Assembly (NCBI GenBank): GCA_026066175.1
Contig: GCA_026066175.1_4721.1
Length of the DNA: 64,000 nt
Strand: one strand, 5' to 3'
Origin: a phage
The first letter of the stretch is position 1. The number at the start of each line of letters is the position of its first letter. A program made the translations under genes and the position numbers. Shown one piece after another: positions 7,995 to 56,953 of the stretch. The notes beneath the pieces were generated by a model, which saw only the letters and a program-made list of their open reading frames with translations, did not search any database and was not told the origin of the DNA.

Positions 7995-8177
7995 AAAAAG
8001 TACCTCCTCACCCACAAGGGGCAAGGAGGTTCGTCCATCACGACGGAAGGACGTTATGTGACGCGGTGTCCATAACGGCCCTGGTAGCAGGCATTAAAGA
8101 TAACAAAAAGGATGTAAGTTGAGCTAAACCACCTAAATACGGTAACGATGACTTCCGTACACAATATACTGCAACAC

Positions 8178-8987: not shown

Positions 8988-9020
8988 AACCCCTTAATAA
9001 GCAACTAAATGAAAACACGA

Positions 9021-9752: not shown

Positions 9753-9753
9753 A

Positions 9754-11985: not shown

Positions 11986-12218
11986 TACTGCGCTCCCTCC
12001 AACGCGTTGTTACGTACCGGCTCTTTGGTTTCCAGACGGCTGTTCAAGCGCGCAGCAACCGCATCTTCCAATCCCAACGGCATAACCTTTTTATTCACAT
12101 CAGGATCCGCTGCATCGTTACCGACGGTCTGACGGACGACCTCAGCAACCAACGTTACCGCGTTCGTCAGCGCAACAAAGCTCGCTGCCCGAGCCGTATT
12201 AAGTTGTTCTTGGTTCAT
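11985..12218 (-). CDS. hypothetical protein (77 aa)
   Basis: Short ORF from track, first gene after the terminator hairpin at 12253-12278; 1-nt overlap with the downstream gene. Confidence 0.45.
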   Translation of the reverse strand: MNQEQLNTARAASFVALTNAVTLVAEVVRQTVGNDAADPDVNKKVMPLGLEDAVAARLNSRLETKEPVRNNALEGAQ

Positions 12219-13409: not shown

Positions 13410-13733
13410 TCTCTTGGGCGAATTTAGTTCTTATTCAGTATTAACATACCGTTACCGAAATAAGACTGAGATTAGATTGTTCAGATAAGGTCGTTAATCT
13501 TATCCCGGAGGTGATGATAGGCACATCACCTCCCGCTTACGTTCTCACGCAAGAGCAGACTATATCACATCTCGTTTCAAACGGTGCTTCTTCAGCACCT
13601 CAACGAGAGTTCACTTCTTCCCAGCGCATCCAGCGCCATTCTCTTATCCAAGGAGAATGCCTCACTCGAGGGGTACAGGGGGATGAATCCCTTAGTCGTT
13701 GAACCGTCACCCTAGAACGTTTCACAACGATCC

Positions 13734-14945: not shown

Positions 14946-14985
14946 TGACTATATTCCTCTTGTGCAGTGAAACTAACTACACTTT

Positions 14986-14997
14986 CGTAATATAGCC
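14986..14997 (-). promoter_or_regulatory. candidate early promoter motif upstream of the HNH gene (GGCTATATTACG on the transcribed strand)
   Basis: Plus-strand CGTAATATAGCC in the 75-nt gap between the beta-like ORF stop and the HNH start. Confidence 0.4.
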
Positions 14998-15020
14998 TTA
15001 ATTCTGTTTACATTGAAGCC

Positions 15021-30039: not shown

Positions 30040-30121
30040 CACGTCCTCCTGAAAAAGAAAAAAGAAATACGGCATAAAGCCTACCCACACAATGGTGGGT
30101 AGGCTAAGATCAACATCGATG

Positions 30122-34704: not shown

Positions 34705-36195
34705 TTATTTTTTGCTCGGACGATTCAGCGCAGGCACCGGATTTTTCGGTTGCTTTGTTTTTTCATCCATCCAGTACGGGAAGTATTCACCTGTACGCAT
34801 GCGCAGTAAGTCCATGGTGGAAAGGAACGGAAGCGGATTTGGGTCGTCCAGATACGTCCAATAACCACGTGTGTTTAACAGTACATCCCAGTCGAAACCT
34901 TTTGCTTTAAGATCGTCGTACAGTTCCTGTGGAGTGCAATAAAGCTGTGGGTTCTCGTAAACTTCTTGACGCCAGAGATTATGCATCTGGCACAACTCCG
35001 AGGTAATCTCCAGAGCGCGTTGCAGATATTCATCTTCCTCGCAAAGAGAACGAATGGTTGTACGCTGTAATGCAACATCCGGATAAATATCCAAATACAC
35101 CGTAGAAGCACCCTCAGCAGGTTTACCACCGGATGCATGCATACCCCAACCACGCATCCATTCTTTATCGCGTAGGTAATGGTATTCTGTTAACGACGGT
35201 TTAACGCCTTCGCTCTGACTGACGACAATCGGAAACGGTAAACCTGTCGGTCCGTTTTTAGCACGCATGTTAAAGACTTGAATCAACTGCAGATCAGTAT
35301 CCCCGATAAGGTTGTCACCAGGCCCACGCGGATAAAGGACGCGTTTATCAGCGTTCTGAAGAATCGTCAGTTTATCGATTTTCCAGAGGTTATTCGTATA
35401 AAACGTGAAGCGTTCCGGGACGTTCTTAAACTTCTCATCGCCCTTAAACCCTTTCAGTTTTCGTACCGGTTGCTGTCCCGGCATACCACCAACGTTTACA
35501 CCGTCACCAAGGTGGGCGGTCATGGTAATGTAGATACCCGCCGACGCTGTGAGTACTGGCATCTGTGATAAAATCTGGCTTTTCGCTGCTGCGGAACGCA
35601 TCGCTTCAGCATTCAGTTTTGCACCACCTGCGGTTTCTTTATCGAACAGTGCATCAACGGCATCGATTGGTAATCCAGAGAAACTGTCAATGAGGACAAC
35701 GGTCGGTAACCACCAGGTGTAGTTCTCGCCGTGTTTATTAATAAACGGAACAGCTTTACGTTGTGACTTGTCTTTAACTTTGTCATCACGGAATTTCTTG
35801 ATTGCGTCGAACCAGATGTTGCCGCTCATCTGAACAGCGTCAGTGATAAACACACGTTCTTCTTCGAACAGGTCAACACCAGCGATATTAGACATGTTCA
35901 TCGCGAGCGTGAGGATACGGGTTGTCGTTAACGACATTTCGGTGTCATAAACGCTACTGTTACTGTTAGCGTAACGATCGATAACACGTAACAAGCGAAA
36001 CATTATGAACGTGGTTTTGTTCATGTTGCCGCGAGCGCCTGCGCCCTCAACGAGCATCATGCCGCCATTACAAATGCTTTCGCCGTGCTTACCGATGTAG
36101 TACCGACCACCAGATGTGGGAATATCCATCAAGCAACCAATGTTGAGATTAAAACGCATCTCTTCACCAGGAGAAAGGTACTTATTAAGATTCAT
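34705..36195 (-). CDS. hypothetical protein (496 aa)
   Basis: Long ORF; first gene of the minus operon diverging from 36294..37136. Confidence 0.65.
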   Translation of the reverse strand: MNLNKYLSPGEEMRFNLNIGCLMDIPTSGGRYYIGKHGESICNGGMMLVEGAGARGNMNKTTFIMFRLLRVIDRYANSNSSVYDTEMSLTTTRILTLAMNMSNIAGVDLFEEERVFITDAVQMSGNIWFDAIKKFRDDKVKDKSQRKAVPFINKHGENYTWWLPTVVLIDSFSGLPIDAVDALFDKETAGGAKLNAEAMRSAAAKSQILSQMPVLTASAGIYITMTAHLGDGVNVGGMPGQQPVRKLKGFKGDEKFKNVPERFTFYTNNLWKIDKLTILQNADKRVLYPRGPGDNLIGDTDLQLIQVFNMRAKNGPTGLPFPIVVSQSEGVKPSLTEYHYLRDKEWMRGWGMHASGGKPAEGASTVYLDIYPDVALQRTTIRSLCEEDEYLQRALEITSELCQMHNLWRQEVYENPQLYCTPQELYDDLKAKGFDWDVLLNTRGYWTYLDDPNPLPFLSTMDLLRMRTGEYFPYWMDEKTKQPKNPVPALNRPSKK

Positions 36196-41781: not shown

Positions 41782-41813
41782 CCCTCCTCCTTCCCTTACG
41801 GGTTGGAGGAGGG
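41782..41813. terminator. GC-rich hairpin (CCCTCCTCC-TTCCCTTACGGGTT-GGAGGAGGG) followed by A16
   Basis: Perfect 9-bp arms; the inner loop can itself form CCC/GGG around a UUAC (GUAA on the opposite strand) tetraloop; between convergent genes. Confidence 0.6.
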
Positions 41814-41888
41814 CTATGCCGTAAAGCAAAAAAAAAAAAAAAATGATAGTCACGAGCCCTCCAATGAAGGAGAGCCGTGACCGTCAGT

Positions 41889-42590
41889 TTAGGATGCGGA
41901 TAATCTAGCGTACTTTTGTCGAATATGGTTCTTACGGCGAACTTCGTCATCCTCGTCGCGCCATTCGAGGTAAGCTACGAATCGCCGTAACTGCGCTGCA
42001 GTCATTGTTGCTGACAGATCTTCTATTTCTAAAACAACATAGTGAACTTCGCCGACACCATCGCAGTCAGTATAACGGAATACCAAAAGATCCTTATCAT
42101 ATTCCGTGATAATAACCTTGAATCGTTTCTCGAACAAATAAAACAGTTCCGATTCGATAATCATCGGGATAACACAATTATCGTCACGTTCAATGATTTT
42201 CATCATCACACGTAACGCACGAAGCGTGTGATGGGCGAACGAACCATTAAATCGTTGATTCATTGCTTGTCCCACATCAACGATCTTTGTTCCTGGCCAG
42301 GGACGGATTACTGATTTCGGTGGTGTAAGACGGCAGCGGTACGCTTGTATAAACAACAGAATATCGGCGACATTAGGAAATTCTTCCTGGTCTTTGTACA
42401 GCTTACGGATAATATCCGGGATCGTAGTCAACAAATATTTCCTATCGCCTCCCACTTTCTCGAGATTAGCGATATGCCCTTCTACCACCGGCTGGTAAAC
42501 GAAATTATACCAGTGGTGGTATTTTGCAACGTGTTGGTATTTCGGGATGAAATTAAGAACAGCGTTCACTGCGCGTTTTAATGGGTTCAT
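41889..42590 (-). CDS. hypothetical protein
   Basis: 233 aa ORF. Confidence 0.6.
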   Translation of the reverse strand: MNPLKRAVNAVLNFIPKYQHVAKYHHWYNFVYQPVVEGHIANLEKVGGDRKYLLTTIPDIIRKLYKDQEEFPNVADILLFIQAYRCRLTPPKSVIRPWPGTKIVDVGQAMNQRFNGSFAHHTLRALRVMMKIIERDDNCVIPMIIESELFYLFEKRFKVIITEYDKDLLVFRYTDCDGVGEVHYVVLEIEDLSATMTAAQLRRFVAYLEWRDEDDEVRRKNHIRQKYARLSAS

Positions 42591-42604
42591 CAGAAGAATC
42601 CTTC

Positions 42605-43039
42605 TTATGTTTTAATATGCACATCGTCAATCCCCTCGGTAATCCAGCCGATGGGAAGGACAATCGTTGTTATCGTGTTATGTGTGTAAGGATTAAGAAA
42701 ATGGAAATAGTAATTTGTGTTAGATTGTTCGATGCGTAGGTCGAGCTGTGCGTCTTCAGGTAACCGTAACCAGGCACCGTACAGTTCATTAAACTTACGC
42801 TGAATTTTACCTGGGTTCATTGGAACCCCACGACCACGTTGATGTAGCTGACGTAATGATTCAATCAAACACTCAGAGATACCCGTTGTCGTTCCGTTAT
42901 CGCTTGTATCGACAACGATGAACTCTCGTGACCCACGACCAAGATAAAAACCAGCAACAAAAGCTGCAGCAACAAAAAATATCGTACCGATACCAATATA
43001 CCAATAGTAAGTATCCATAACGGCCTCACTTATACCCAA
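42605..43039 (-). CDS. small membrane protein (one N-terminal TM helix)
   Basis: 144 aa ORF; hydrophobic stretch IGIGTIFFVAAAFVAGFYL. Confidence 0.55.
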   Translation of the reverse strand: MGISEAVMDTYYWYIGIGTIFFVAAAFVAGFYLGRGSREFIVVDTSDNGTTTGISECLIESLRQLHQRGRGVPMNPGKIQRKFNELYGAWLRLPEDAQLDLRIEQSNTNYYFHFLNPYTHNTITTIVLPIGWITEGIDDVHIKT

Positions 43040-43557
43040 TAGTCGGCAAGCGGTTTCACCTTATTAACGGGTAATTGTACTTTACCGATATTCTCTACAT
43101 CTGCATCCGCGTAGAGAACAATTTTATCATTGTCTCTTTCCCAACGAATAATAAATCGACCAGGAAGAAGATTACCCTGTTCAAGAGACGCAGTAACCTG
43201 CTGCGTTAACACCGACAACCAAGCAGGCATCAGTGTTGCAATATCTAAGTCATTTGACCATTCAGCACGTTGCTCCACAGGGCGTAACATCCGTTGGATG
43301 GTGCGTTGAACCGTCGCAGTGATATAGCCTTTATCTTCATCACTGATCGGATCCGGACGAGACACAAAACGTTCAGTAGGCTTGTGGGTAATATGTTCAT
43401 GCAATTCGATGAGTGGTGTTGTCATAGTACTCGCTCCGTCAGAATGTAATTGGGTAACCCGCAGGGTTGTCTGCATGGTATTCAGAAGCGCAAAAGCGCC
43501 ATAAACAACAACGACACTAAGTACAACCAAAACAGAAATCATTAACGTATATTGCAT
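43030..43557 (-). CDS. small membrane protein (one N-terminal TM helix)
   Basis: ORF track 43030..43605 trimmed to ATG (MQYTLMISVLVVLSVVVVYGAFALL) with GAGGAGA SD. Confidence 0.55.
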   Translation of the reverse strand: MQYTLMISVLVVLSVVVVYGAFALLNTMQTTLRVTQLHSDGASTMTTPLIELHEHITHKPTERFVSRPDPISDEDKGYITATVQRTIQRMLRPVEQRAEWSNDLDIATLMPAWLSVLTQQVTASLEQGNLLPGRFIIRWERDNDKIVLYADADVENIGKVQLPVNKVKPLADYWV

Positions 43558-43625
43558 TGATATCTCCTCTTCATACGCATCTTGAAGATTAGTTAAAATC
43601 AACAAAAGAAAAAACGATATAAAGC

Positions 43626-43651
43626 AAGGTCCTCTGATATCAGAGGACCTT
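43626..43651. promoter_or_regulatory. perfect 26-bp palindrome AAGGTCCTCTGATATCAGAGGACCTT
   Basis: Read directly; lies between two membrane-protein genes of the same operon; could be an RNA hairpin (processing site or attenuator) or a dimeric protein-binding site. Confidence 0.4.
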
Positions 43652-43658
43652 GGATCAA

Positions 43659-44315
43659 TTAGCTTGCAGCTTCTTCATTTGTTTCAGGTTTGCTTCCCCC
43701 TAACAAACCGTCAAACAGACCCGTATGTTTCAGGTAGAAGAGAGCGATAGCGCCCATTGCTGCTGCGCTCGTCGCCGTTAATGCAACCCCTGCACGATAC
43801 TGCCATTTACGGTCAGGCTTTTGATCAAGCGCCATACGACGCATGTATTCAGCCTCTGCTTCATTCCGATGAATTTCGGATTCGGCCAAGCGGGCTAAGG
43901 TATCGCGGTCAAGGTTATCATAACGTGCGTTCATGGTGGTTTCCTCTTGTTTGGAAGTTGATTGCTTGGTAGATTCTTGGTCAACAGTCGTTTCGGTTGG
44001 TTCAAACGGCTGGTTGTTCATTTTCTGATCTTTATTGGACATGATAGGCTCCTTCGATTTTTGAGACGAAATTGATTTAAACCATCGTGGATGGCGGTAT
44101 TCGGTTTTACATGTACAGTTAAGTTTCTCATGCAGGAAGGCGTAAAAACGTTTCGCACCTACACGTAAGGCTTTCAGCATTACCCATCCACGAGCACTCA
44201 AACGGTGTAGCTGTTGCGGTATGTCGAGTTTCCTAGCCAAGCGAAAGTATCTCTCAATCACTTCGATAGGAAACCATTGTTGTTCCACATCGGTGAGACT
44301 GAAAGTCTTATCCAT
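43659..44315 (-). CDS. membrane-anchored protein (C-terminal TM helix)
   Basis: 218 aa ORF; C-terminal GVALTATSAAAMGAIALFYL hydrophobic helix; first gene after the motif at 44346-44357. Confidence 0.55.
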   Translation of the reverse strand: MDKTFSLTDVEQQWFPIEVIERYFRLARKLDIPQQLHRLSARGWVMLKALRVGAKRFYAFLHEKLNCTCKTEYRHPRWFKSISSQKSKEPIMSNKDQKMNNQPFEPTETTVDQESTKQSTSKQEETTMNARYDNLDRDTLARLAESEIHRNEAEAEYMRRMALDQKPDRKWQYRAGVALTATSAAAMGAIALFYLKHTGLFDGLLGGSKPETNEEAAS

Positions 44316-44345
44316 GAATGAAATCTCGCTGGCTTACTTCACTTA

Positions 44346-44357
44346 AGTAATATAGCC
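44346..44357 (-). promoter_or_regulatory. candidate early promoter motif (GGCTATATTACT on the transcribed strand)
   Basis: Plus-strand TAAGTAATATAGCCGTGAAA, ~30 nt upstream of the start at 44315; the same 20-mer recurs at 59607-59626. Confidence 0.45.
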
Positions 44358-44465
44358 GTGAAAAATGATGGAATAAGTTAAATACGACAACCGCAACTAA
44401 TTTTATAGGCTTTTAGCCTAAACCAATCATCTTCGGAATCATCATCTTTGAAACAGGAATCTATC

Positions 44466-45287
44466 ATGGAAAAAGTATTTGTTTGTAAGTTGTTTACCAA
44501 CGGCAATAGCCAACCAATGTATCTGACCGATCCTGTTCTAGGTAATCGGAACAGTACCGTATTCAAAGAAGCTTTCGAATACGCTAAAAATAAAGCCGTG
44601 AGAACACTGACGTCCGATGACTGTATCAACGGTATCACGTGGGCAGAGTTATTCGGTGATGCTGTTAGACACTTCGTTCAGGACGCAAGAAAACAGGAAA
44701 TCAGTCTCACGACTATCGTTGTGCGCGAAAACGCAGAAATTTTATCAAACGTTTTAGTTGATTTTAATGACGTTTGCGTGTTTAATCCAGAGAACACGTT
44801 TGAACAATATCTTACTACCCTGAACAACCAGCTCGGTAAAGATATTCATCCCGAATTCGCCAAGTTAACGTATCAAGTGCTTTTTAACGACGTCGATCCA
44901 AACACAAAGATCAACACCAGCTTATCGTCCCTGGTAAAGAAATACGGATCGGTTCTTGCTACGGCAACACCCACCACCGATGGCGGTTATGATATCGAAT
45001 TGGATGGTCCATTAAAAGAACAAGAACCTACTGGGATTCGGGCGGTACATCACAACCTCGTCGTTAAATCTGATGGATGCGATGAACATTACGCTATGAT
45101 AAACGATGAAAACAATTACCGTTTAAGTCAAGCGATTGGTGTTCTACGCTATACCGAACCCACTGTTGTAGACGATTATACATCGACAACAACACACACC
45201 ACGTGTTTCATTTTCATCTATCCCAATGAAAGTGTATACATTACCGACTGCTATGGCAATACCGTAGATAGCTTACGTCGTTATTAA
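44466..45287 (+). CDS. hypothetical protein
   Basis: ORF track 44448..45287 (TTG start) trimmed to ATG with AGGAA SD. Confidence 0.6.
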   Translation: MEKVFVCKLFTNGNSQPMYLTDPVLGNRNSTVFKEAFEYAKNKAVRTLTSDDCINGITWAELFGDAVRHFVQDARKQEISLTTIVVRENAEILSNVLVDFNDVCVFNPENTFEQYLTTLNNQLGKDIHPEFAKLTYQVLFNDVDPNTKINTSLSSLVKKYGSVLATATPTTDGGYDIELDGPLKEQEPTGIRAVHHNLVVKSDGCDEHYAMINDENNYRLSQAIGVLRYTEPTVVDDYTSTTTHTTCFIFIYPNESVYITDCYGNTVDSLRRY

Positions 45288-45292
45288 TCATC

Positions 45293-45320
45293 AAGCCTGT
45301 CCTTCGGGGCAGGCTTTTAT
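45293..45320 (+). terminator. intrinsic terminator (AAGCCTGTCC-TTCG-GGGCAGGCTT + TTTT)
   Basis: Classic stem-loop plus T-tract 5 nt after the stop of 44466..45287. Confidence 0.65.
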
Positions 45321-45395
45321 GCCGTTAAATAACTGGAATAAGAATTAACAAAATAGGAAAATGGTGTGAATATAACACAAAGGAGGGAGATGATT

Positions 45396-45512
45396 ATGTT
45401 ACTCATTCTAATGGAGAGAGCATTGCTGGCGGGTATCTGCGCATTCTCTGTTAAACACGCTGTTGCTATCATGGCTGAAGAAAGGCGTAATACGCATAAT
45501 GTATTACGCTGA
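45396..45512 (+). CDS. possible small hydrophobic protein (38 aa, MLLILMERALLAGICAFSVKHAVAIMAEERRNTHNVLR)
   Basis: Found by manual translation; AAAGGAGGG SD 7-9 nt upstream of the ATG; below the ORF-track size cutoff. Confidence 0.3.
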   Translation: MLLILMERALLAGICAFSVKHAVAIMAEERRNTHNVLR

Positions 45513-45621
45513 AAACACTGTGTGCATTAGTGTATGACGAGAAATCGTCGAGGCCCCCGTCTTCACGAGGGCCAACACCTATGCATGATTATCCACCGTC
45601 TGTTAAACAAAGGTTATAAAC

Positions 45622-45930
45622 ATGAGCAATTTGAACGTTGAGTTTACTTCAACAACGCCTGTCATGAATGGTGTTGGCACTGAAACCAAAATCGTATTAG
45701 AACCCATTCCAGGGTTACGCGATCTCGGTGATTTTTATCCACTGATGCCGCGTATACGGAAGGCCTTAAACAGTATCGATCTTGATTCCAATAAAGATTT
45801 CCAACACGATACAGAAAATACCGATCATGTATTGCTGCCATCAGGGATCGCAAAATTCACCTACACGCAAACATTGAAAGCCTCTGATGGTGAAATCCGT
45901 CGTTTTATCGTTGAAGTAGAAAGCGCATAA
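45622..45930 (+). CDS. hypothetical protein (102 aa)
   Basis: ORF with AAAGG SD, followed by the hairpin at 45935-45966. Confidence 0.55.
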   Translation: MSNLNVEFTSTTPVMNGVGTETKIVLEPIPGLRDLGDFYPLMPRIRKALNSIDLDSNKDFQHDTENTDHVLLPSGIAKFTYTQTLKASDGEIRRFIVEVESA

Positions 45931-45934
45931 AAAC

Positions 45935-45966
45935 CATCCTCCCAACCCGTAAGGGAAGGGAGGATG
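45935..45966. terminator. GC-rich hairpin (CATCCTCCC-AACCCGTAAGGGAA-GGGAGGATG)
   Basis: 9-bp arms; the loop is the reverse complement of the loop at 41791-41804; between convergent genes. Confidence 0.55.
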
Positions 45967-45983
45967 AAATATGCCGTTAAACG

Positions 45984-46613
45984 TTATTCAACAAACCCTG
46001 CGTTCAACAGATTGTCGTAAACACGATTAGCGACATCAACAGGAGAATGTGTGTTACTGGTATCTATACGCAGCGTTTTCGCGTCGCCGAGATAGTCCAT
46101 AAAATCCATGTAACGATAACGTCGTTTATTGAATGTCGCTTCATCGATGTTATCAAACATCTGATGTTTAGCGTGACGAACACGGAACCGTCTTAAATAC
46201 GTAGGATAGTCAATATCCAGATAAACATAGTAAGATGGCATGATAATCGACGGTAGGTTCGGCAACAATGCGTCAAACAACTTAACGTTAGCGTCATTAA
46301 CCTGATAAACATACGTCGAAGCAATCGAACGATCGCTAAGCACGGTCTTCCCTTCGTTAAGGGCTGGATGAATCACCTTGTTGAAGAGATGATTACGTTG
46401 CGACATCATCGCCAACAGTTCAGTTTCTGGATCGAATCTGTTCGTTGGTGTCTGATCTTCCAGGATAAGTTTACGAATGGCTTCTCCGTAGAGCGTACCA
46501 CCGGGTTCACGTACAACACAGACGTTGTTTAAACGACTGTGTAAAGACGAGATAACCGAACTCTTTCCTGAATAATCCAAGCCTTCAATAACGATATATT
46601 TATTACGAGACAT
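45984..46613 (-). CDS. tmk: thymidylate kinase (dTMP kinase)
   Basis: P-loop IVIEGLDYSGKSS (cf. Tmk IVIEGLEGAGKTT), REPGGT lid-like motif and LSDRSIASTYVYQ (DRY/DRH-type motif); start trimmed to ATG (MSRNKY...). Confidence 0.75.
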   Translation of the reverse strand: MSRNKYIVIEGLDYSGKSSVISSLHSRLNNVCVVREPGGTLYGEAIRKLILEDQTPTNRFDPETELLAMMSQRNHLFNKVIHPALNEGKTVLSDRSIASTYVYQVNDANVKLFDALLPNLPSIIMPSYYVYLDIDYPTYLRRFRVRHAKHQMFDNIDEATFNKRRYRYMDFMDYLGDAKTLRIDTSNTHSPVDVANRVYDNLLNAGFVE

Positions 46614-46629
46614 TCCCCGCTCCAATTAA

Positions 46630-47805
46630 CTACTTCGTTTTCGCCGTTATCGGCTGCGATACTGTAATCTCGACCCGATCGACATCGGTACGTTTAACGA
46701 TGATAAGGCTGCGTCCATCACCAAATGGTTCTGAAACCTTACAAGCCTCTTTAAGATTTTCGAGAATCTTGCCATATGGTTCAAACACCGCAAAACCGGA
46801 ACTAGCGTCGATTCTTATTAGACTTACACGCGTACCGTTTACGGTAATGGTGTCATCCGTCTTGAATTCACAACAGGAGGGTAGACGGAACTGGCCGGGA
46901 ATACCGGCTACGTATGCCTCACCACCGAACATTTCTATTAATGTCACCGGTTTGAATGCTTTCTCTGGGAAAGCACTATTAAGGGTATCGTTTCCATTCA
47001 CAAACCAGATCGTTACTTTATCTTCGGAATACGCTAGACGGTACGGTTGGGTTGCGGACGCTTGCGCTTTATGCTGGTTGAATAACTTTGATTTTGTCGC
47101 AATTACAGCACGACCTTGGGCATCAAAGTACAGAACTTCATACCCAACACATCCGATAAACACGCGACGGTTATTAAGTTCCGGAATTCTGACTACTAAT
47201 GCATTACCATCTTCCGTCGGTGTAATACCACGTAGAATAATCGATTCGTTATTCAATACTGAGTTGTCCACGACGATGCTTCGCATTACCGCTGGGGTTA
47301 CTGTTTTATCTGCGGTAGGTTCAGGTTGCTCAGCAATGCGGTCAAAAGGTTCGATGGATACCATGGGAACGAAGTATTCAACTATATGCTTGTTTGCAGC
47401 ACCGACGTCCATGACGGTGATCTGCAAACGCGTAGCATCCGAATTCAATGCTTGTTTCACACGTTCTGCATTAGGAGTATCACGGTCAATATGAATCAAG
47501 GCTTTTACCACACCGTCGTCTTCCAACCATCCCGTTAAAACGCGACCGACGATATCGTTCACGTCACGAATCGGGAAGCACAGTTCAGCGCCATCGAGCA
47601 CCGCTTCGATTTTACTGCTAATGACGGGCACCTTACCGTCGTTAAGATGCGCCAGCAGACCGGTTACTGCACCTTCACTAACCGGATGTTTTGTCGTCGT
47701 ACTGACCAACGGTACGATAAAACGATCTTCGCTGTATTTCTCTGCACCACAGATAACCGGGACTTGAGGACAATAATCAACCAGGCCCCATTCAACAGTA
47801 TTCAT
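46630..47805 (-). CDS. hypothetical protein
   Basis: ORF track 46630..47883 trimmed to ATG (MNTVEWG...) with AAGGAA SD, which removes the overlap with the upstream gene. Confidence 0.55.
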   Translation of the reverse strand: MNTVEWGLVDYCPQVPVICGAEKYSEDRFIVPLVSTTTKHPVSEGAVTGLLAHLNDGKVPVISSKIEAVLDGAELCFPIRDVNDIVGRVLTGWLEDDGVVKALIHIDRDTPNAERVKQALNSDATRLQITVMDVGAANKHIVEYFVPMVSIEPFDRIAEQPEPTADKTVTPAVMRSIVVDNSVLNNESIILRGITPTEDGNALVVRIPELNNRRVFIGCVGYEVLYFDAQGRAVIATKSKLFNQHKAQASATQPYRLAYSEDKVTIWFVNGNDTLNSAFPEKAFKPVTLIEMFGGEAYVAGIPGQFRLPSCCEFKTDDTITVNGTRVSLIRIDASSGFAVFEPYGKILENLKEACKVSEPFGDGRSLIIVKRTDVDRVEITVSQPITAKTK

Positions 47806-47839
47806 AACGTTTTTTCCTTCTTGGGTTTTGTACGAGTTG

Positions 47840-48454
47840 CTAACGGCGTTTTGTACCGACCTTCCCGTTTCGATGGTCATCAAGAATACGCCATTCTTCG
47901 AACAGGAGTTCAGCTGCGAAATAACCGACGGCGATGCTGTCTATTGCATGCTCATCAAGATTCGCTAACACAACACCGTTCCTAGGTGTGATGTTCATGA
48001 GGTTCAACACTTTCTGGCGAACATCATCCTTACCGACACGGGACGTCATAATCCCAACAGCGCGTTTTGCGCTTCGGTTATCAACCCCTAAGAAAGACAC
48101 CGTAGGGTCAAAATCGATAACCGTCGTCTGAATCGCTGAAAACAGCTCACTGAGCGCCATACCGCTTTGCTTGAAACGACCGATGAATGGCGTCTCACAA
48201 GCGACCGCTTGCGGCCGGTACTCTTGCAATAACGTTGTCAGCGAACGACGGTGTTCTTGGATACGTGCGGCACGATTACCGTATCCAAGCGCAATATCAC
48301 CATCGGGATCATATCGACGTGAAGCGTGCCATGTCCCCGCATACAGCAGTTCAATATCTTCGACACGCACGTCCAAACGTAGTAACGACGCACCGAGCGT
48401 ATCGGTGCCAGGGTCGATTGCCAGAATATCGTAAGCGTATTCTGGTGGGATCAT
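47840..48454 (-). CDS. RuvC-like Holliday junction resolvase
   Basis: YDILAIDPGTDTLGASLL (RuvC motif I, cf. ILGIDPGSRVTGYGV), AVACETPF (Glu) and LDEHAIDSIAVG (cf. DAADALAIA); start ATG overlaps the upstream stop (ATGA). Confidence 0.7.
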   Translation of the reverse strand: MIPPEYAYDILAIDPGTDTLGASLLRLDVRVEDIELLYAGTWHASRRYDPDGDIALGYGNRAARIQEHRRSLTTLLQEYRPQAVACETPFIGRFKQSGMALSELFSAIQTTVIDFDPTVSFLGVDNRSAKRAVGIMTSRVGKDDVRQKVLNLMNITPRNGVVLANLDEHAIDSIAVGYFAAELLFEEWRILDDHRNGKVGTKRR

Positions 48455-49266
48455 GGTGTTACAACAGCCTCTACTGACCATGGGAAGGTTTTCGCAATAA
48501 CACCTTCCAGGAAGCGTTCAACTTCCGATTGCTCATACACCGAAAGCTTTTCAAACGGCGTTTGGTCTTCGGTTAAACCCACCGCGTGAATAGGACCCAG
48601 GTCTTTAACCAGAGTAACTTCGCCTTTAACGCCTTCGCGTTTAACGATGATCGCATGATCATTAACCTTAGGATCATACAGCACACGCATCATGGTTACC
48701 GCGTCATCCGGTTCATGACCGAAATCGATGGCAACACGAGCATTCGTCCCTTCTTCGTCCAGAAGCTTGCTTAGCGCTTTACAACGGTCTTCAATCCAAT
48801 CCAACGCGACCACGGTTTCTTGGCGTAGCTGAACCTCAACCTCTTTTCCTTGTTCGTCGATACGTTTCACGGTAACAAAATCATGCAATAAACGGTCAGG
48901 GAGGAGAGAAGCAATAAGTTCAACGTTGGGTTCAGGTTTTTCGTTTTCCAGAATGATGGTCGCTTGTGCGTCCAGATGTTCTTTAAAACGGATGTAACGT
49001 GTTAATCGCAGAACTTCATCTTGGGATTTTGCGTCTTCGGGAATAATCTCCGTCATGACGTTATAAATCTTTTCAGCGAACGTCGGAATTACGGTGATTG
49101 TAATTCGTGCTGGTGTACCACGCTCCTGGTACTCATCGGCTAACTTCTTCGCCATCCCGTTAAAATAAGTCTGGAGAAACGGTTGCTGCGTTAAAAACAT
49201 TTTCTCCAGATCGGAATAGCGATGCTTGCGTGCATGGCCTAGCTTCTTCATGGGTTTTTTCATCAA
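48451..49266 (-). CDS. hypothetical protein, translationally coupled to the RuvC-like gene
   Basis: 271 aa ORF between the SbcC-like and RuvC-like genes; no Mre11/SbcD phosphoesterase motifs seen. Confidence 0.6.
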   Translation of the reverse strand: MMKKPMKKLGHARKHRYSDLEKMFLTQQPFLQTYFNGMAKKLADEYQERGTPARITITVIPTFAEKIYNVMTEIIPEDAKSQDEVLRLTRYIRFKEHLDAQATIILENEKPEPNVELIASLLPDRLLHDFVTVKRIDEQGKEVEVQLRQETVVALDWIEDRCKALSKLLDEEGTNARVAIDFGHEPDDAVTMMRVLYDPKVNDHAIIVKREGVKGEVTLVKDLGPIHAVGLTEDQTPFEKLSVYEQSEVERFLEGVIAKTFPWSVEAVVTP

Positions 49267-49284
49267 CAGAAATCCTTATTTGTC

Positions 49285-51741
49285 TTAAATAATCGTGACG
49301 TGTTCGTTATATGTTTCAGGGAGAATGATGTTCGTTTTATCAAGAACCATACACTCGGCTTTACGGAATGATGCATGGTTGATCACATAGTGACTGATGA
49401 ACCACACCTGGCTTACGCGGTGACCATCAACCAGACGACGAACAAAATCCATGGCATTAGATTGGTGCTGCGGATCAAATGTTGATGCGAATTCATCTAA
49501 CATCAACGGATAATCCGTAAACCCCTTGTAATGCATCATCGCGATGATGAACGCGATATTGATAATTTCCTTTTGTCCCTTACTCCCATAAACAATATCT
49601 TTTCGCGGTGTCGGATACTTCTCAGTTAAAAGCGGAAAACGATAGTTCAATCCTTGCGCGTCGATAGCACACGGGAGTATCTGCAGTTGGTATTCCCAAA
49701 TACTCGCAATGATGCCGTTCATGTACTCAACGAACGCGTTGATGGGACCCGCAATTGTTTCGGCAATCAGTCCGTTGGATGGACTCAACTCATCCAGAAC
49801 AAGTTGTGCGTAACTGAGCTGTTCTTCCACCTCTTTTTGTGTCGTTTCCAACTGAGCCAGAAGCTGCTGGTCGGTTTTAGCTTCCTGTAGTTGCTGTTCG
49901 ACATGACTTATTCGGCGAACTGTATCAGACATCGCAGCACGTAACGATTTCGTGTAGAGGTGTTGCAGATACTCTAACCACAGTTGCGTTAACGCTTTAT
50001 CGCTGTTATCAGAACGTACCTGATCTTCCATAATCGCCGTAATGGTTTCCAATCTACCTTCCGTAGCTGTGATGGCTTGTGTTAACCGCTCAACGGTTGT
50101 TAACAACTCTGTCCTGTTCTTATAAAGCAATTCTCGACGTTGCTGTAACGGTTCAACATCAACCGCTTGTACCCGTTCGAGCATGCCTTGAAGATGTTTA
50201 CGTTCTTGTTCGGCTTGTGTATAACGTGCGAGTTTCTCGAATGCAAGCAACCAATCATTAATGATTCCAATGCTGCGGAATCCTAATCCGTTTTTACGTC
50301 CTTCTTCCAGCAGATTGTCCCACATGGGTTTAATGGCGTAATAATCCTTCGTCCAACGTGTTAACTGACGATGTTGTTCCATCCAGAGCGTATAACGCTG
50401 AACCTTCTCGCTAAGCTCAGCTAACGATTTCTCTTGTTCTTCAACCCAAGCACGGCCTTTCTGAATGCGTTGTTCAATACTCGCTTTGCTGGTCTTTTCC
50501 GTTTCACCAACATGAAAGCGATAATTGCATTTTGGACAGCTGGTCTGGGGTTGATGATTCAGATGGTCGAGATGCGCTTCCAAATCGGCTAACGCATGTT
50601 TCGCGTTACGCAAACGCATTCTTGCTGCCTCTTCCTCCTTGATGTAAGCTTCAGCATCGTAAACATGATAGGTGTTGTCGGTATCAATCCATTCTTGCAA
50701 TAGTTCTGTTAACGGAGCCTGAACTTGCGTGAGCTGTTGTAAACAAACCGCGGCGTCCAGATTCATCGTCAAAAGCTCACCCGGATGATCTTGCTGAAGT
50801 TGTTCGTCCAAACGTGCGAGGCGGGCTTTAATCTGATCGATATCGCCTTCGCCAGACTGTTTCAACTGGTCAAGGATATTATCGATACCCAACAGCTCGT
50901 CGACCTGACTTTCAAGTTTCGCATTCGCATTCGCGAGTTGTTCTCTTAGTTCAGCCAGATTCTGCTGTTCTTGTTGCGATGTTCCTCCTTGGTAACGAAC
51001 AACCGCGCGAAGAAGTTCGCGATTAAAATGATGGGCACGTTGTGCGGATTCCAGAAGCTGTCGTTGATCAACATCACTATCGAATAACGGCAATCCCATC
51101 ATCGCTTCGAGCGCTGAGCGTTGCTGTTTTAACTCTGCTTCCAATCCCTGGTGGTCGGTTCCGGTGTATTTCGCTTCAATTCGCTGTGATGTTTCAACCA
51201 ACTTATTCAATGTATGCTCATTCACCGCTTTCAGTGAACGTACTTGTTGCTTAACCACCTGAAACAACTCAAGCGCATAATCGACGTTAACCGGACATAT
51301 TTGTGTTAATCGTTCGCGTCGTTTCATCGGTCCCATTTCGGTGAACTGGTAAGCTGTTTCGTAACCTAACAACAAACGAATGGTGTCGTCATTAAGTTCG
51401 AAATGTTCTTCGATCAGTTTCCACTGGGCTGGTTGTGTACCACCACCGTTCAGGTTCTCACTGTCGTTAACGTAGAACTCATGCTTAAACCCTTTTTCTA
51501 AACGACTGATAAGACGGTATTGCTTATTACGGTGTTCGCAGCGGTACTCGTAATACCCATCTTTATCAAAATCGGCGCGCTCGGGAACGGTTGGATACAG
51601 CAAAGGCAGTAGACTACTCTTACCCGAACCGTTGCTGCCTAAAATGAGTTGTACGGGATTATCTGGCCGGATGACCAGCTCCCGAATCATCCCGGTATCA
51701 AAACGATTGAATCCACGTAAGTGGAGATACGTACATCGCAT
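49285..51741 (-). CDS. SbcC/Rad50-like ATPase with zinc hook
   Basis: N-terminal Walker A LILGSNGSGKSSLL, long heptad-rich middle region containing CPKCNYRF (CxxC hook), C-terminal LMLDEFASTFD (Walker B/D-loop). Confidence 0.7.
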   Translation of the reverse strand: MRCTYLHLRGFNRFDTGMIRELVIRPDNPVQLILGSNGSGKSSLLPLLYPTVPERADFDKDGYYEYRCEHRNKQYRLISRLEKGFKHEFYVNDSENLNGGGTQPAQWKLIEEHFELNDDTIRLLLGYETAYQFTEMGPMKRRERLTQICPVNVDYALELFQVVKQQVRSLKAVNEHTLNKLVETSQRIEAKYTGTDHQGLEAELKQQRSALEAMMGLPLFDSDVDQRQLLESAQRAHHFNRELLRAVVRYQGGTSQQEQQNLAELREQLANANAKLESQVDELLGIDNILDQLKQSGEGDIDQIKARLARLDEQLQQDHPGELLTMNLDAAVCLQQLTQVQAPLTELLQEWIDTDNTYHVYDAEAYIKEEEAARMRLRNAKHALADLEAHLDHLNHQPQTSCPKCNYRFHVGETEKTSKASIEQRIQKGRAWVEEQEKSLAELSEKVQRYTLWMEQHRQLTRWTKDYYAIKPMWDNLLEEGRKNGLGFRSIGIINDWLLAFEKLARYTQAEQERKHLQGMLERVQAVDVEPLQQRRELLYKNRTELLTTVERLTQAITATEGRLETITAIMEDQVRSDNSDKALTQLWLEYLQHLYTKSLRAAMSDTVRRISHVEQQLQEAKTDQQLLAQLETTQKEVEEQLSYAQLVLDELSPSNGLIAETIAGPINAFVEYMNGIIASIWEYQLQILPCAIDAQGLNYRFPLLTEKYPTPRKDIVYGSKGQKEIINIAFIIAMMHYKGFTDYPLMLDEFASTFDPQHQSNAMDFVRRLVDGHRVSQVWFISHYVINHASFRKAECMVLDKTNIILPETYNEHVTII

Positions 51742-51806
51742 GCTATGATAATCCTTATTCGGTACTATTTTCTATATCGTTATTCAAATCAGTAGGAGAT
51801 TACAGC

Positions 51807-52895
51807 ATGGGTGATCAGGCAACGGATAACCGTACAAAAGGGAGCCAACTCGCTCCGGATAACAACGTCAGCGTTTTTCGTATTTTTGCCTTGGGTACTG
51901 TAGCAGCTGACTTTTCCAACAAAAGCCTGGAAGAAGACCCTAATCAAACGCTGGAAGTCTTTCTCGATGAAATGATGTCAGGCGCTGACGGGAAAGTTGA
52001 AGCAGCTGGAAGCGTTAAGGAAGTGAGTGCGACAGACGCACAAGGAAACAGCTATACAGCAAAGGCTGCAACAACAACCAGCGTACAATGTTACTGGTTA
52101 CCATTCGGAAGCAACCGCATGACCGCACCTAACTTAAGGAAAGGTCAACGTGTGGTGGTTTGGCGTACCGCGGATGAAGAACAGCTTTATTGGCAGCCTA
52201 AAGGGGGCGATAGTGAGCTGATGACCATGGAATCGGTGATTCTTACCGTGAGCGCACGTCCGAGCGCGAAGAAAGATCGTAAGTCGATTTCCACCGAAGA
52301 CTGTTACTACCTCATGGTCGACACGTTCCTCAAGAAAGCCGTTATCGGCACCAGCGCCCAGCTTGGTGAAGTCACGCAGGTATACATGGAACTGAACTTG
52401 GATGAAGGCTATCTACAGGTGGCGGATAGCGTTCATCAAAACCTGTTGTTGCTGCATTTCGTTGAACACATGCTGCGTTATCAAAACCAAGATGACAGCA
52501 TCATTGATGTAACGAAGAAAAACATCACGTTCCAATGCGAAGACACACTCAAAGTTATCGCTAAGAACGATATCCGGATGAAAGCGAAAAACATCTATAC
52601 GGAATGCGAGAATTTCGAACGGACAAGCAAGACAGAGAAAGTAACCAGTCAGAACGTTTCATTGAAGTGTGAACGCTATACCGCACAGGTCTCTGGACAA
52701 ACCACGTTCAAATGTCCGAAAACGGTATTCACTGGTGCGGTAAGCTTCACCGGTGAAGACGGCAACACCATGACGTTGAATGGAAACTTCGTGCATGTAG
52801 CGGGGTCTTGGCGTTCACCATCAGGAACCAACGTCTACACGCACGATCATGGTGGCGTAGAACGTGGTGGTGGTAAAACAGATCCGTTCCATTAA
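51807..52895 (+). CDS. putative tail spike / cell-puncturing protein (beta-helix-like repeats, C-terminal HDH motif)
   Basis: C-terminal third has repetitive short beta-strand-like segments (KNITFQCEDTLKVIAKNDIRMKAKNIYTECENFERTSKTEKVTSQNVSLKCERYTAQVSGQTTFKCPKTVFTGAVSFTG) ending in YTHDHGG, reminiscent of gp5/gpV-type spikes with metal-binding His; pattern-based only. Confidence 0.35.
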   Translation: MGDQATDNRTKGSQLAPDNNVSVFRIFALGTVAADFSNKSLEEDPNQTLEVFLDEMMSGADGKVEAAGSVKEVSATDAQGNSYTAKAATTTSVQCYWLPFGSNRMTAPNLRKGQRVVVWRTADEEQLYWQPKGGDSELMTMESVILTVSARPSAKKDRKSISTEDCYYLMVDTFLKKAVIGTSAQLGEVTQVYMELNLDEGYLQVADSVHQNLLLLHFVEHMLRYQNQDDSIIDVTKKNITFQCEDTLKVIAKNDIRMKAKNIYTECENFERTSKTEKVTSQNVSLKCERYTAQVSGQTTFKCPKTVFTGAVSFTGEDGNTMTLNGNFVHVAGSWRSPSGTNVYTHDHGGVERGGGKTDPFH

Positions 52896-52919
52896 TCAAA
52901 AAAAAAAAACAATGTTGTT

Positions 52920-52957
52920 ATCCTCCTTCCCTAGCCATCAGGCCGGGGAAGGAGGAT
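52920..52957. terminator. GC-rich hairpin, same arms as 5375-5412 with reverse-complemented loop
   Basis: ATCCTCCTTCCC-TAGCCATCAGGCCG-GGGAAGGAGGAT preceded by A12 and followed by TTATGGTTTATTTA, the same flank as the 5375 copy. Confidence 0.6.
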
Positions 52958-52970
52958 TATGGTTTATTTA

Positions 52971-53360
52971 TTAACGGATTGCGTTTTGGATGATTTCTTT
53001 TCCGATCGTAATCAAAGCAGGTATCTGTACTGCGGTTGCACCTTGATGACGAAACGCGGTCGCTAACGCGGTATCGATGCTCACAGCACGTCCGTGAAGA
53101 CGATCGAAATAGACTTGAGTGATAGCAGCGGCATACTCTTTTCGCTGTTTCTTGGTTTGGTTTACCATCGTCGCACTACTACCGACGATGAAATAAGCGA
53201 TTAAGAAGAATGCGGCTGACCGTGAGCCGGGTAGAAAGCCTTGGCGTTTAGGAAGCATTTCACAATCACGAACAGTAATACTGTTCGTGAGCTTTTCCAT
53301 GTCGACATGGCATAATTTTGCATAGGTGTGAAGATGATGGGTAAAAGTAGAATTTAACAT
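52971..53360 (-). CDS. hypothetical protein with one hydrophobic helix
   Basis: 129 aa ORF with GAGGAAAGAA SD; last gene of the minus-strand operon that starts at 59523. Confidence 0.55.
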   Translation of the reverse strand: MLNSTFTHHLHTYAKLCHVDMEKLTNSITVRDCEMLPKRQGFLPGSRSAAFFLIAYFIVGSSATMVNQTKKQRKEYAAAITQVYFDRLHGRAVSIDTALATAFRHQGATAVQIPALITIGKEIIQNAIR

Positions 53361-53464
53361 TTCTTTCCTCGGTTACAATGAGTTCAATGTATGGCGTAAA
53401 CGTCACAGAACGACGTATAACAGTTTGTTTTGATTTCTAAGGTGTTTCCCTATCTAAGAGTGAA

Positions 53465-53827
53465 TTAAAGCGTTCTGAAGAGTTCTGTGGCGTTCTCAGC
53501 ATGTAAACATGCTTCGTTCAACAACTCCGCTAACAACTTCGATCTAACTTCAACGAATGTCCTGGTACGATGCTCCCAGTCTAAACGGATGGTGTAAGTA
53601 TCATCCATGTTTCTGTGGTCAACAACAGATGTTGAACAACGTGTTTCTTGTTTATTCACAGCACTCCAGACATCACGGATAATCTTCATGCCTTTCTTGG
53701 TGCACGTAAACGTCAAGATACAACGATTATTCGCTGCTTCTTCACAAACGTGAATAAATTCGCTTCGTAGCGATGAGGTCTTGGTCAATCGATCGATAGC
53801 AAGCGATAACCCAATACGTTGTTGCAT
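53465..53827 (-). CDS. small paralog family A protein (120 aa), unknown function
   Basis: Shares LTFTCTKKGMKIIRDVW with FTFVCTALGKTLLEAAFW (53829..54242) and LGFVFSQTGKDVLENIFW (54258..54701). Confidence 0.55.
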   Translation of the reverse strand: MQQRIGLSLAIDRLTKTSSLRSEFIHVCEEAANNRCILTFTCTKKGMKIIRDVWSAVNKQETRCSTSVVDHRNMDDTYTIRLDWEHRTRTFVEVRSKLLAELLNEACLHAENATELFRTL

Positions 53828-53828
53828 A

Positions 53829-54242
53829 TCAAATTCCTTCTTTCAAAATCTCATTAAGGCCGTCTGCAACCGCGTCCAAATGGGCATCCATATCCGTTAC
53901 GGTGCCAGCGGTAACTGTCCAGACGTGCCGTATTAATGTCTCACCATTCGTACATTTTACCATTTCCATCGCCAACTTTGTTTGTCCTGACGATGGTGAG
54001 ATCTCATTGCTCCGCCAAAACGCAGCCTCGAGTAATGTTTTACCTAACGCTGTACACACAAAAGTAAATTCTACTTGACCAATACCTACCACCGAAGCGG
54101 ATAACGGTTGGATATGTTCGCGCAGCTTATCATCTTCACGTAGGAGCAGCAGTGTACGATGTAAGTGTGTACGGTGGGTAACAATAGCGTCGTAATGACC
54201 GATGCGTACATCGGCTACTGATTCAGGCCAGTTAATTTTCAT
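53829..54242 (-). CDS. small paralog family A protein (137 aa), unknown function
   Basis: See shared motif F-x-F-x-x-T-x-x-GK-x-[LI]-[LI]-x-x-x-[FV]-W; starts 2 nt after the upstream gene. Confidence 0.55.
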   Translation of the reverse strand: MKINWPESVADVRIGHYDAIVTHRTHLHRTLLLLREDDKLREHIQPLSASVVGIGQVEFTFVCTALGKTLLEAAFWRSNEISPSSGQTKLAMEMVKCTNGETLIRHVWTVTAGTVTDMDAHLDAVADGLNEILKEGI

Positions 54243-56873: not shown

Positions 56874-56953
56874 TTTAGATCTCTCTTTGTTATTGGTAAA
56901 ATAAATAACGGCATAAAGGGGACATAACTGCCCCCGTGTTAAATATCAACTGT

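Follow-up and report, generated by a model that had tools for sequence, protein, structure and literature searches.

A 38-codon open reading frame and a near-invariant intergenic element upstream of gp007 in a Goslar-like jumbo phage

The open reading frame of 38 codons at positions 45396-45512 (hereafter ORF1) in a stretch of phage DNA of 64,000 nucleotides, which was analysed as a whole and is referred to below as the window, is restricted to a single phage genus and carries good translation signals, with no detectable selection on its product. What comparison of related genomes brings out is an almost unchanging element of about 100 nt, which begins within the last codons of ORF1 and continues beyond its stop codon towards the next gene, gp007. 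We consider it somewhat more probable than the contrary that the ORF1 peptide is not the selected product of this region and that selection acts on the invariant element, as a leader or promoter working in cis on gp007. The preliminary description of this DNA had presented ORF1, together with a second small frame at 7905-7994 (ORF2), as potential host-takeover factors; we found no support for this idea for either frame. As it was put forward, ORF1 matters little, and the non-coding elements present at both loci form a better lead than the two ORFs.

ORF1 and its genomic setting

Goslar is a nucleus-forming jumbo phage of 237 kb and belongs to the genus Goslarvirus. The window is a relative of this Escherichia phage at 87-97% identity: when both sites were compared with the phage collection, Escherichia phage vB_EcoM_Goslar was the sole match, at 97% identity for the ORF1 locus (site 1) and 87% for the ORF2 locus (site 2). 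The two sequences are collinear across the ends of the linear Goslar record, window positions 41789-53864 corresponding to Goslar 1-12130 and window positions 1-41843 to Goslar 194,856-237,307; the stretch around ORF1, window 45286-45626, equals Goslar 3500-3840. Judged by this identity and collinearity, the window phage is a Goslar-like chimallivirus. The ORF1 locus was aligned in 14 Goslar-like genomes, i.e., the contigs that encode ORF1 homologs and two IMG/VR contigs, whereas the comparison of ORF1 with gp007 was limited to 12 genomes in which both are covered, and the ORF2 locus was compared in nine genomes, the window included. Complete E. coli genomes gave no match when searched for further relatives, and neither did GTDB genome contigs in one scan with the core of site 2.

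The features of the ORF1 locus are as follows.

45293-45316, plus strand: intrinsic terminator hairpin of the gp005 ortholog, AAGCCTGTCC-TTCG-GGGCAGGCTT, followed by TTTAT
45316-45325, plus strand: post-hairpin motif TTTATGCCGT, which contains TATG; TATGCTGT in most relatives
45326-45379, plus strand: AT-rich, fast-evolving leader 5' of ORF1, with 8/54 variable sites in 12 genomes and 13/54 in 14 genomes
45380-45389, plus strand: Shine-Dalgarno sequence of ORF1, AAGGAGGGAG, with its GGAG core in 14/14 genomes despite flanking changes
45396-45512, plus strand: ORF1, 38 codons and stop, ortholog of Goslar_00006 (gp006); alternative in-frame ATG at 45390
45484-45510, plus strand: predicted 11-bp RNA hairpin GGCGUAAUACG-CAUAA-UGUAUUACGCU, spanning the final nine codons of ORF1 up to the first base of the stop
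45487-45584, no strand assigned: near-invariant block of 98 nt, i.e., the last eight codons of ORF1, its stop and 72 nt downstream
45522-45586, plus strand: predicted three-way junction with outer stem GUGCAU/AUGCAU and inner stem GUGU/ACAC
45533-45536, plus strand: TATG, a candidate start motif of the phiKZ-type nvRNAP, in the invariant block and 86 nt before the ATG of gp007
45580-45594, plus strand: TATGCATGATTATCC, with a second TATG (45580-45583), 39 nt before the ATG of gp007
45622-45930, plus strand: gp007 ortholog, 102 aa, under strong purifying selection
45938-45969, no strand assigned: bidirectional terminator hairpin CATCCTCCC...GGGAGGATG after gp007, followed by AAATATGCCGTTAAA on the plus strand

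The spacer between the upstream gene and gp007 measures 334 nt (45288-45621). It had been described as holding an ATG with a Shine-Dalgarno sequence and a frame of 38 residues at 45396-45512, between a terminator and the start of the gene at 45622, and all of this is present in the sequence: the frame MLLILMERALLAGICAFSVKHAVAIMAEERRNTHNVLR comprises 38 codons and ends in a TGA stop at 45510-45512, the hairpin at 45293-45316 with its TTTAT lies upstream, and gp007 starts downstream at the position given. The hairpin was recovered in our own hairpin scan, is an annotated terminator in Goslar and is near-invariant in 12 genomes. ATGs occur at both 45390 and 45396, the latter having the better spacing to the Shine-Dalgarno sequence (6-9 nt); one genome has GTG at 45396 and keeps the ATG at 45390. 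The Shine-Dalgarno sequence itself lies outside any hairpin.

The statement that ORF1 is unannotated did not hold. An identical ORF is annotated in Goslar as Goslar_00006 (HOV27_gp006; QBO63799.1), a hypothetical protein, which matches ORF1 at 100% over 38 aa in tblastn. The DNA is identical to that of Goslar over positions 45335-45595, the longest perfect run in the 64-kb window, within which the near-invariant block falls. The order of gp005, terminator, ORF, gp007 and a convergent thymidylate kinase is shared with Goslar and recurs in four of the related genomes (L009, L012, L014 and L016). ORF1 shares its 38-aa sequence, its DNA and its place after the gp005 terminator and before gp007 with Goslar gp006; it is the ortholog of this annotated hypothetical gene and as such was already known. 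A literature search found no paper that mentions Goslar gp006.

Among 5.8 billion proteins, a word-indexed search recovered nine clusters of ORF1 proteins in which gene callers had likewise given a product of 38 aa, 84-97% identical. A profile search of 1.84 billion representative proteins yielded no homolog of ORF1 beyond the same family, Goslar was the only match among 50,697 phage records in tblastn and in distant blastn, and neither Pfam nor PHROGs holds a family for the peptide. Because the protein, profile, phage, Pfam and PHROG searches gave nothing further, the ORF1 family appears to be confined to Goslar-like phages. A protein of 492 aa with a weak profile match to ORF1 (E=5e-4, spread over four short stretches) is probably spurious.

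Substitutions in ORF1 and its peptide product

The share of variable sites along the locus, in 12 genomes, is as follows.

45326-45379: leader, 15%
45380-45395: Shine-Dalgarno sequence and spacer, 19%
45396-45419: ORF1 codons 1-8, 8%
45420-45486: ORF1 codons 9-30, 24%
45487-45512: last eight codons of ORF1 and stop, 0%
45513-45584: next 72 nt, 4%
45585-45621: 37 nt before gp007, 32%
within 45622-45914: third codon positions of the gp007 ortholog, 28%

Conservation in related phages had been proposed as a check on ORF1, and in one respect the frame passes it, since Shine-Dalgarno sequence, start and open frame are intact in 14/14 Goslar-like genomes. ORF1 has no internal indels while its flanks have several, although this is weak evidence as the latter lie in homopolymer runs. 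The intact frame carries little weight, however, because the probability that no stop would be gained in 25 neutral changes in ORF1 is 0.81.

The substitutions themselves do not have the signature of a conserved protein. Counted per site and not on a tree, within one genus-level clade with a peptide identity of at least 84%, ORF1 shows nine synonymous (S) and 16 non-synonymous (N) changes in the 14 genomes, distributed over the three codon positions as 11/5/9. The synonymous share of 36% compares with a neutral expectation of 33% under the observed transition bias (binomial p=0.83). In the 12 genomes covering both genes ORF1 has S=3 and N=14 (codon positions 9/4/4), whereas gp007 has S=28 and N=8 (codon positions 3/4/29), a difference in S/N that is significant (Fisher p=5.5e-5). 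The excess of synonymous changes and their concentration at third positions, by which purifying selection on a protein is recognized, are thus not seen in ORF1. In codons 9-30, 16 of the 67 sites vary, against 18.6 expected from the third positions of gp007. Together with the leader and the Shine-Dalgarno sequence, these codons evolve at roughly the neutral rate, and replacements of amino acids are not avoided. On these few counts from a shallow clade, the substitutions in ORF1 look neutral, i.e., indistinguishable from drift, and a pattern that is neutral-looking or rich in N would also be expected of a peptide under diversifying selection.

ORF1 might accordingly be read as encoding a functional small peptide, possibly membrane-active and of the host-takeover or lysis-timing type, with a centre under relaxed or diversifying selection, a reading that we regard as unlikely. 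The peptide (which includes the stretches MLLILMER, ALLAGICAFSVK, HAVAIMAEER and NTHNVLR) is indeed hydrophobic, as had been described, with a GRAVY of 0.61. The hydrophobicity of its N-terminal 27 residues and its basic C-terminus would fit a positive-inside orientation in a membrane. In Pfam and PHROGs it falls in no recognised family of small membrane peptides. Its best Kyte-Doolittle windows of 19 residues reach 1.97 and 1.83, both being interrupted by a charged pair, E7/R8 or K20/H21. Structure prediction confidently returned one helix (pLDDT 84), which would fit a functional peptide and is in itself uninformative. A functional peptide would also agree with the canonical Shine-Dalgarno sequence, start and open frame in all 14 genomes and with the retention of ORF1 in one genome (L011) that has lost most of gp005. 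The ratio N:S of 14:3 exceeds the neutral ratio of about 2:1, but this N excess is not significant (p=0.21) and there is no excess of synonymous changes. Furthermore, radical replacements (L3P, C15R, R30G and R31C) are among those tolerated, and a search of 1.8 billion representatives produced no homolog beyond the genus, and Pfam and PHROGs no family. Goslar gp006 is not listed in the examined part of Table S4 of the virion LC-MS/MS study (10.64898/2026.04.21.720040), and its absence there bears on a role as a virion component only.

The two ends of the peptide deserve separate consideration. Its first eight and last seven residues (MLLILMER and NTHNVLR) are invariant, which could reflect a function of the peptide instead of a constraint on RNA or DNA. 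At the C-terminal end, however, the codons are invariant at their third positions as well and invariance extends for 72 nt past the stop, both of which argue against the peptide as the cause. Probably, therefore, in so far as these comparisons can tell, the ORF1 peptide is not a selected product.

The near-invariant block, its predicted fold and gp007

The block at 45487-45584 contains three variable sites out of 98 in 12 genomes, where 27 would be expected from the third positions of gp007 (Poisson p=5e-9). Because this invariance spans third codon positions and runs through the stop of ORF1, the constraint appears to act on the nucleotides and not on the peptide. Folding of positions 45476-45600 on the plus strand gave -42.5 kcal/mol (z=-4.3), and 0/200 shuffles folded as well; the complementary minus strand folds equally well (z=-4.75). 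In addition to the 11-bp hairpin at the end of ORF1, the predicted structure contains a three-way junction with the hairpins GACGA-GAAA-UCGUC and GGCCC.CGU-CUUC-ACG.GGGCC. Over 45484-45586, 31 of the 34 predicted pairs never vary; the covariation test has no power here and showed none. The changes that do occur are at 45486 (C-G to U-G in two genomes of the eight-row alignment), at 45585 (U-A to U-G in three genomes of the same alignment) and at 45484 (G-U to A-U in genome L010, which lies outside that alignment). All three are tolerated on the plus strand; on the minus strand, two would disrupt a pair. The one substitution within the junction itself (45557) affects a predicted bulge.

Other readings of this fold were considered and rejected. 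In the minimum-free-energy fold the Shine-Dalgarno sequence and start of ORF1 pair over a long range with 45583-45600, but this 3' partner varies without compensation. The hairpin at 45485-45509 is unlikely to serve as a terminator on the minus strand, since no gene on the minus strand reads into it (transcripts from the thymidylate kinase block on that strand first meet the terminator at 45938-45969), and also because the changes at 45486, in the hairpin, and at 45585, in the junction stem, retain pairing only on the plus strand. Rfam gave only chance-level sub-threshold matches at the ORF1 site at E<=10, and hence no small RNA above threshold.

The gene that follows is the ortholog of Goslar HOV27_gp007 (YP_009820692.1), a protein of 11.4 kDa. 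A 2026 preprint on the Goslar virion reports about 250 copies of it per particle, with a peptide coverage of 64% (LC-MS/MS, Table S4, 10.64898/2026.04.21.720040). We conjecture that the invariant element most likely serves as a promoter and/or structured 5' leader that controls this highly expressed gene. The object under selection would then be the element of about 100 nt as a whole, with its predicted 11-bp hairpin, its three-way junction and its two TATG motifs.

A promoter function is suggested by comparison with phage phiKZ. In the late promoters of the phiKZ nvRNAP a core TATG is necessary, its G being position +1, and downstream sequence also matters (PMC4666361). The present phage is similar in that TATG follows many of its hairpins and is present at two places in the invariant block that precedes gp007, a virion gene; it differs in that TATG alone is insufficient in phiKZ and the extended TATGCCGT and TATGCATGATT contexts have not been described there. 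By analogy with phiKZ only, the TATG at 45533 may act as the promoter of gp007. TATG also occurs at 45318 and at 7995 (minus strand), and it is a common sequence, so its presence is weak evidence. The second TATG is part of TATGCATGATTATCC, and a 15-mer almost identical to it is found some 100 nt upstream of another gene (34705-36195, minus strand); TATGCATGATTATCC itself is partly variable, CATG being replaced by CGCG in three genomes.

A role for ORF1 itself could follow from its position. Its ribosome-binding site is free, canonical and conserved, and for this reason ORF1 is probably translated from any transcript that includes it, which could arise when a polymerase passes the gp005 terminator or starts at the motif with TATG just after it. 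To arrive at the UGA at 45510, a ribosome translating ORF1 would need to open the 11-bp hairpin, and the stretch that it occupies would extend to the base of the junction; because of this, ORF1 is most plausibly a cis-acting leader ORF. Otherwise, the main alternative to a role in cis is that it has no role at all. Leader peptides of the trpL type and the small ORFs found by Ribo-seq in phages offer a parallel, as ORF1 is short, has a strong ribosome-binding site and lies in the leader of a downstream gene; as in trpL-type leaders, its 3' end overlaps a predicted stable hairpin and its peptide sequence is poorly constrained. Unlike trpL-type attenuators, the locus lacks a U-tract, an anti-terminator pairing and a regulatory codon run, and the stop of ORF1 lies 110 nt from the start of gp007, too far for translational coupling. 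A classical attenuator was, therefore, rejected: the hairpin at 45484-45510 is followed by UGAAAACAC without a U-tract, and there is no conserved alternative pairing.

It is quite unlikely, in our estimation, that ORF1 is merely a chance or young ORF without function, transcribed negligibly or not at all because a strong terminator lies upstream of it and the gp007 promoter downstream. Such an origin would be in line with the neutral evolution of codons 9-30 and with the probability, given above, of a frame remaining open by chance. Moreover, a scan for sigma-70 promoters found nothing above shuffled expectation near ORF1 or ORF2, no sigma-70-like or CTATATTAC-type promoter precedes ORF1, and any transcripts initiated at the TATG motifs at 45533 and 45580 would begin only beyond it. 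However, AAGGAGG at an ideal spacing to the ATG is retained in all genomes while the leader around it changes, only two sites vary in the 24 nt of the first eight codons, and the TATG motif at 45318, after the terminator, could start a transcript that includes ORF1. Furthermore, all 249 annotated genes of Goslar were above the detection threshold at some time point, according to the account of the RNA-seq experiment (10.1101/2023.09.20.558163), which gives expression as classes.

The least probable reading, that the spacer encodes an independent small non-coding RNA (hairpin and junction, at about 45484-45590) which ORF1 overlaps by accident, could draw on the strong constraint at nucleotide level, the stable predicted fold (z=-4.3), wobble-compatible changes that fit the plus strand and the existence of a second conserved element at 8031-8165 (minus strand) that ends in a terminator, so that such elements may be a feature of this phage group, but it is improbable given that the structure has neither a terminator nor a U-tract behind it on the plus strand, that neither an Rfam match nor covariation was found and that the structure abuts the start region of gp007, for which a cis-acting leader or promoter is the simpler explanation.

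Look-alike start signals and the site at 7905-8165

The features of the second site are as follows.

7905-7994, minus strand: ORF2, 29 codons, in the 5' region of the gp213 ortholog; not a conserved gene
7988-7997, minus strand: motif TTTATGCCGT, which supplies the ATG of ORF2
8002-8030, minus strand: intrinsic terminator, a hairpin of 12 bp with the tail ACTTTTTATG; the supposed GAGGAGG Shine-Dalgarno sequence (8009-8003) is the 3' arm of this hairpin
8031-8165, minus strand: conserved non-coding element of about 135 nt, between the stop of the prohead protease gene (8178) and the terminator

ORF2 had been described as a similar small ORF of 29 residues with a Shine-Dalgarno sequence GAGGAGG. 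Its letters are as described, with an ATG at 7994, a stop ending at 7905 and GAGGAGG 8 nt upstream of the ATG, but the interpretation as a gene has to be abandoned, as the supposed Shine-Dalgarno sequence is an arm of a terminator. This terminator (8030-8002) has 12 pairs, seven of them G-C, a loop of 5 nt and the tail ACTTTTTATG. One of its stem pairs is A-U in seven genomes, G-U in one (the window) and G-C in one, and two further pairs switch only between Watson-Crick and wobble, so that both a stem-loop with a T-run behind a gene and compensatory change in the stem, by which intrinsic terminators are recognized, are present. Disruption of the frame in close relatives, which had been named as grounds for giving it up, was found in seven of the nine genomes: these have one additional nucleotide after ATGCCGTC, which reduces the product to MPSF before a stop, and an 8-nt indel further on, and the long frame is confined to the window and to L026, its closest relative. 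With a terminator arm for a Shine-Dalgarno sequence, an ATG supplied by TTTATGCCGT and a frame that does not stay open in most relatives, ORF2 is, on the evidence of these alignments, not a gene but an artefact of the terminator.

With their GC-rich stem and T-run, both the hairpin at 8030-8002 (minus strand) and that at 45293-45316 resemble ordinary intrinsic terminators, but the T-run in this phage is short and leads into the recurrent TATGCCGT or into TATGG. The 10-mer TTTATGCCGT has five exact copies in the window, four of them directly after a GC-rich hairpin, and the core TATGCCGT has nine, six of which are intergenic, where about two in all would be expected by chance. A scan of the window for GGAGG or AGGAG at 4-10 nt before an ATG gave 39 cases. 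About half of these are true gene starts; the intergenic remainder consists mostly of 3' arms of CCTCC/GGAGG-rich hairpins that are followed by TATG (e.g., those at 5414, 52959, 41816, 45971, 28969, 28929 and 7994). Because many terminator stems in this phage are rich in CCTCC/GGAGG and are followed by TATG, a sequence resembling a Shine-Dalgarno sequence with an ATG arises systematically. ORF1 is the only intergenic case of at least 35 codons with a Shine-Dalgarno sequence outside a hairpin arm. The lesson for this phage group is that terminator hairpins with a GGAGG arm, together with TATG, mimic ribosome-binding sites and lead to false calls of small ORFs, and a more general one is that a dozen closely related genomes can tell selected sequence from mere look-alikes of genes.

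The conserved element at 8031-8165 has about 6% variable sites (estimated by eye) against about 27% in the adjacent coding sequence of the protease, and it contains a perfect run of 103 nt to Goslar inside a region of about 85% identity. Because it has indels of 1-2 nt, it is evidently not coding. Rfam gave only chance-level matches at this site at E<=10. More tentatively, and with the odds rather against it, the two near-invariant blocks (45487-45584, and 8031-8165 on the minus strand) may both be functional RNAs or cis-regulatory elements of Goslar-like phages that have not been described before, in which case translation of ORF1, as a leader ORF acting in cis, would remodel the first of them. 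Candidate roles would be the structured leader of a late virion gene and a small RNA that is either derived from a 3'UTR or stands alone. To our knowledge, the promoters and RNA elements of Goslar are still largely undefined, and the two constrained non-coding elements and the two recurrent intergenic motifs are targets for the mapping of Goslar transcription; the eCLIP data of the ChmC paper concern PhiPA3, not Goslar. As for RNA genes in the window at large, a scan for tRNA and tmRNA found none, and the sole match to Rfam 15 at the gathering threshold is a group I intron at 13536-13959.

A conserved non-coding element following the prohead protease gene

The stop codon of the prohead protease gene (8178) directly precedes a non-coding stretch of approximately 135 nt (8031-8165, minus strand) with few variable sites among nine genomes. 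By eye, approximately 6% of its sites vary in these genomes vs. approximately 27% in the adjoining coding sequence, and it contains a run of 103 nt that is perfectly identical to Goslar in a region of otherwise approximately 85% identity. Since 1-2-nt indels are present, the stretch is not coding. It is closed by a covarying terminator (8002-8030, minus strand), and its variable columns are all either located in predicted loops or wobble-compatible. The element is a candidate for either a small RNA or a conserved 3' UTR; Rfam returned no match for it, and the Goslar annotation has no feature at its counterpart. A weaker form of the ggCTATATTAC-N5-TGAtag motif described below, TATATTGT, occurs at 8168 (minus strand), where the element begins.

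Recurrent motifs and hairpins

Three recurrent elements were encountered in the window, the first of which, (TT)TATGCCGT, is repeatedly found 0-5 nt after GC-rich hairpins.

Recurrent elements in the window
45316-45325, plus strand: (TT)TATGCCGT after a hairpin
7988-7997, minus strand: (TT)TATGCCGT after a hairpin
30069-30078, minus strand: (TT)TATGCCGT after a hairpin
56908-56917, minus strand: (TT)TATGCCGT after a hairpin
41815, plus strand: (TT)TATGCCGT after a hairpin
45970, plus strand: (TT)TATGCCGT after a hairpin
59619, 44354, 31245, 14994 and 7091, minus strand: ggCTATATTAC-N5-TGAtag
5354-5422 and 52896-52970: two copies of an element of approximately 77 nt

(TT)TATGCCGT is a recurring motif, terminator-tail or promoter-like in character, which is specific to the group of Goslar-like phages. 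A simple promoter role is disfavoured for the copy at 45970, because the next 5.8 kb contain no gene on the same strand. The second motif, ggCTATATTAC-N5-TGAtag, resembles the promoter consensus of a phage RNA polymerase. Its five copies are all intergenic and on the minus strand, and minus-strand genes start 39-99 nt downstream of four of them; the position equivalent to the fifth lies approximately 96 nt upstream of Goslar_00021. The element of approximately 77 nt consists of a poly-A tract, a 12-bp hairpin (ATCCTCCTTCCC...GGGAAGGAGGAT) and TATGGTTTATTTA, in this order, and the 14-nt hairpin loop of one copy is the reverse complement of that of the other. In both copies, a hairpin arm and TATG mimic a ribosome-binding site, which yields strong but spurious combinations of a Shine-Dalgarno sequence and ATG; the small ORFs created in this way have 50 and 35 codons.

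The gp005 and gp007 orthologs

In one relative (contig L011, 3634-4000; ENA ERZ28649724 scaffold_1) the gp005 ortholog (273 aa) has been largely lost. The 3' end of this gene, the terminator, the 38-codon ORF1 and gp007 are retained, which indicates that gp005 is dispensable while the downstream unit is kept. The gp007 ortholog (45622-45930, plus strand) belongs to no Pfam or PHROG family; a 2026 preprint (10.64898/2026.04.21.720040) puts gp007 at approximately 250 copies per virion. Its start may be 45622 or the upstream ATG at 45581, both being candidates. In the window and in Goslar this ATG opens a 12-codon ORF ending at TAA 45617-45619; in several relatives a 1-nt indel near 45608 brings it in frame with gp007, and for two of these (contigs L015 and L016) gene callers consequently give a length of 116 rather than 102 aa.

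Apparent intron differences from Goslar

Compared to Goslar, the window carries a 1.6-kb insertion within the Goslar_00228 ortholog and lacks approximately 2.1 kb.

Regions differing from Goslar
13408-15038: 1.6-kb insertion
13536-13959, minus strand: group I intron match in the insertion (RF00028, 51.4 bits)
13734-14945, minus strand: 403-aa ORF in the insertion, preceded by the CTATATTAC motif
18413-18454: site of the missing approximately 2.1 kb

In Goslar, the missing sequence contains Goslar_00230 and Goslar_00229, the latter being annotated as a group I intron. Together, these differences resemble a polymorphism in which mobile introns are either present or absent.
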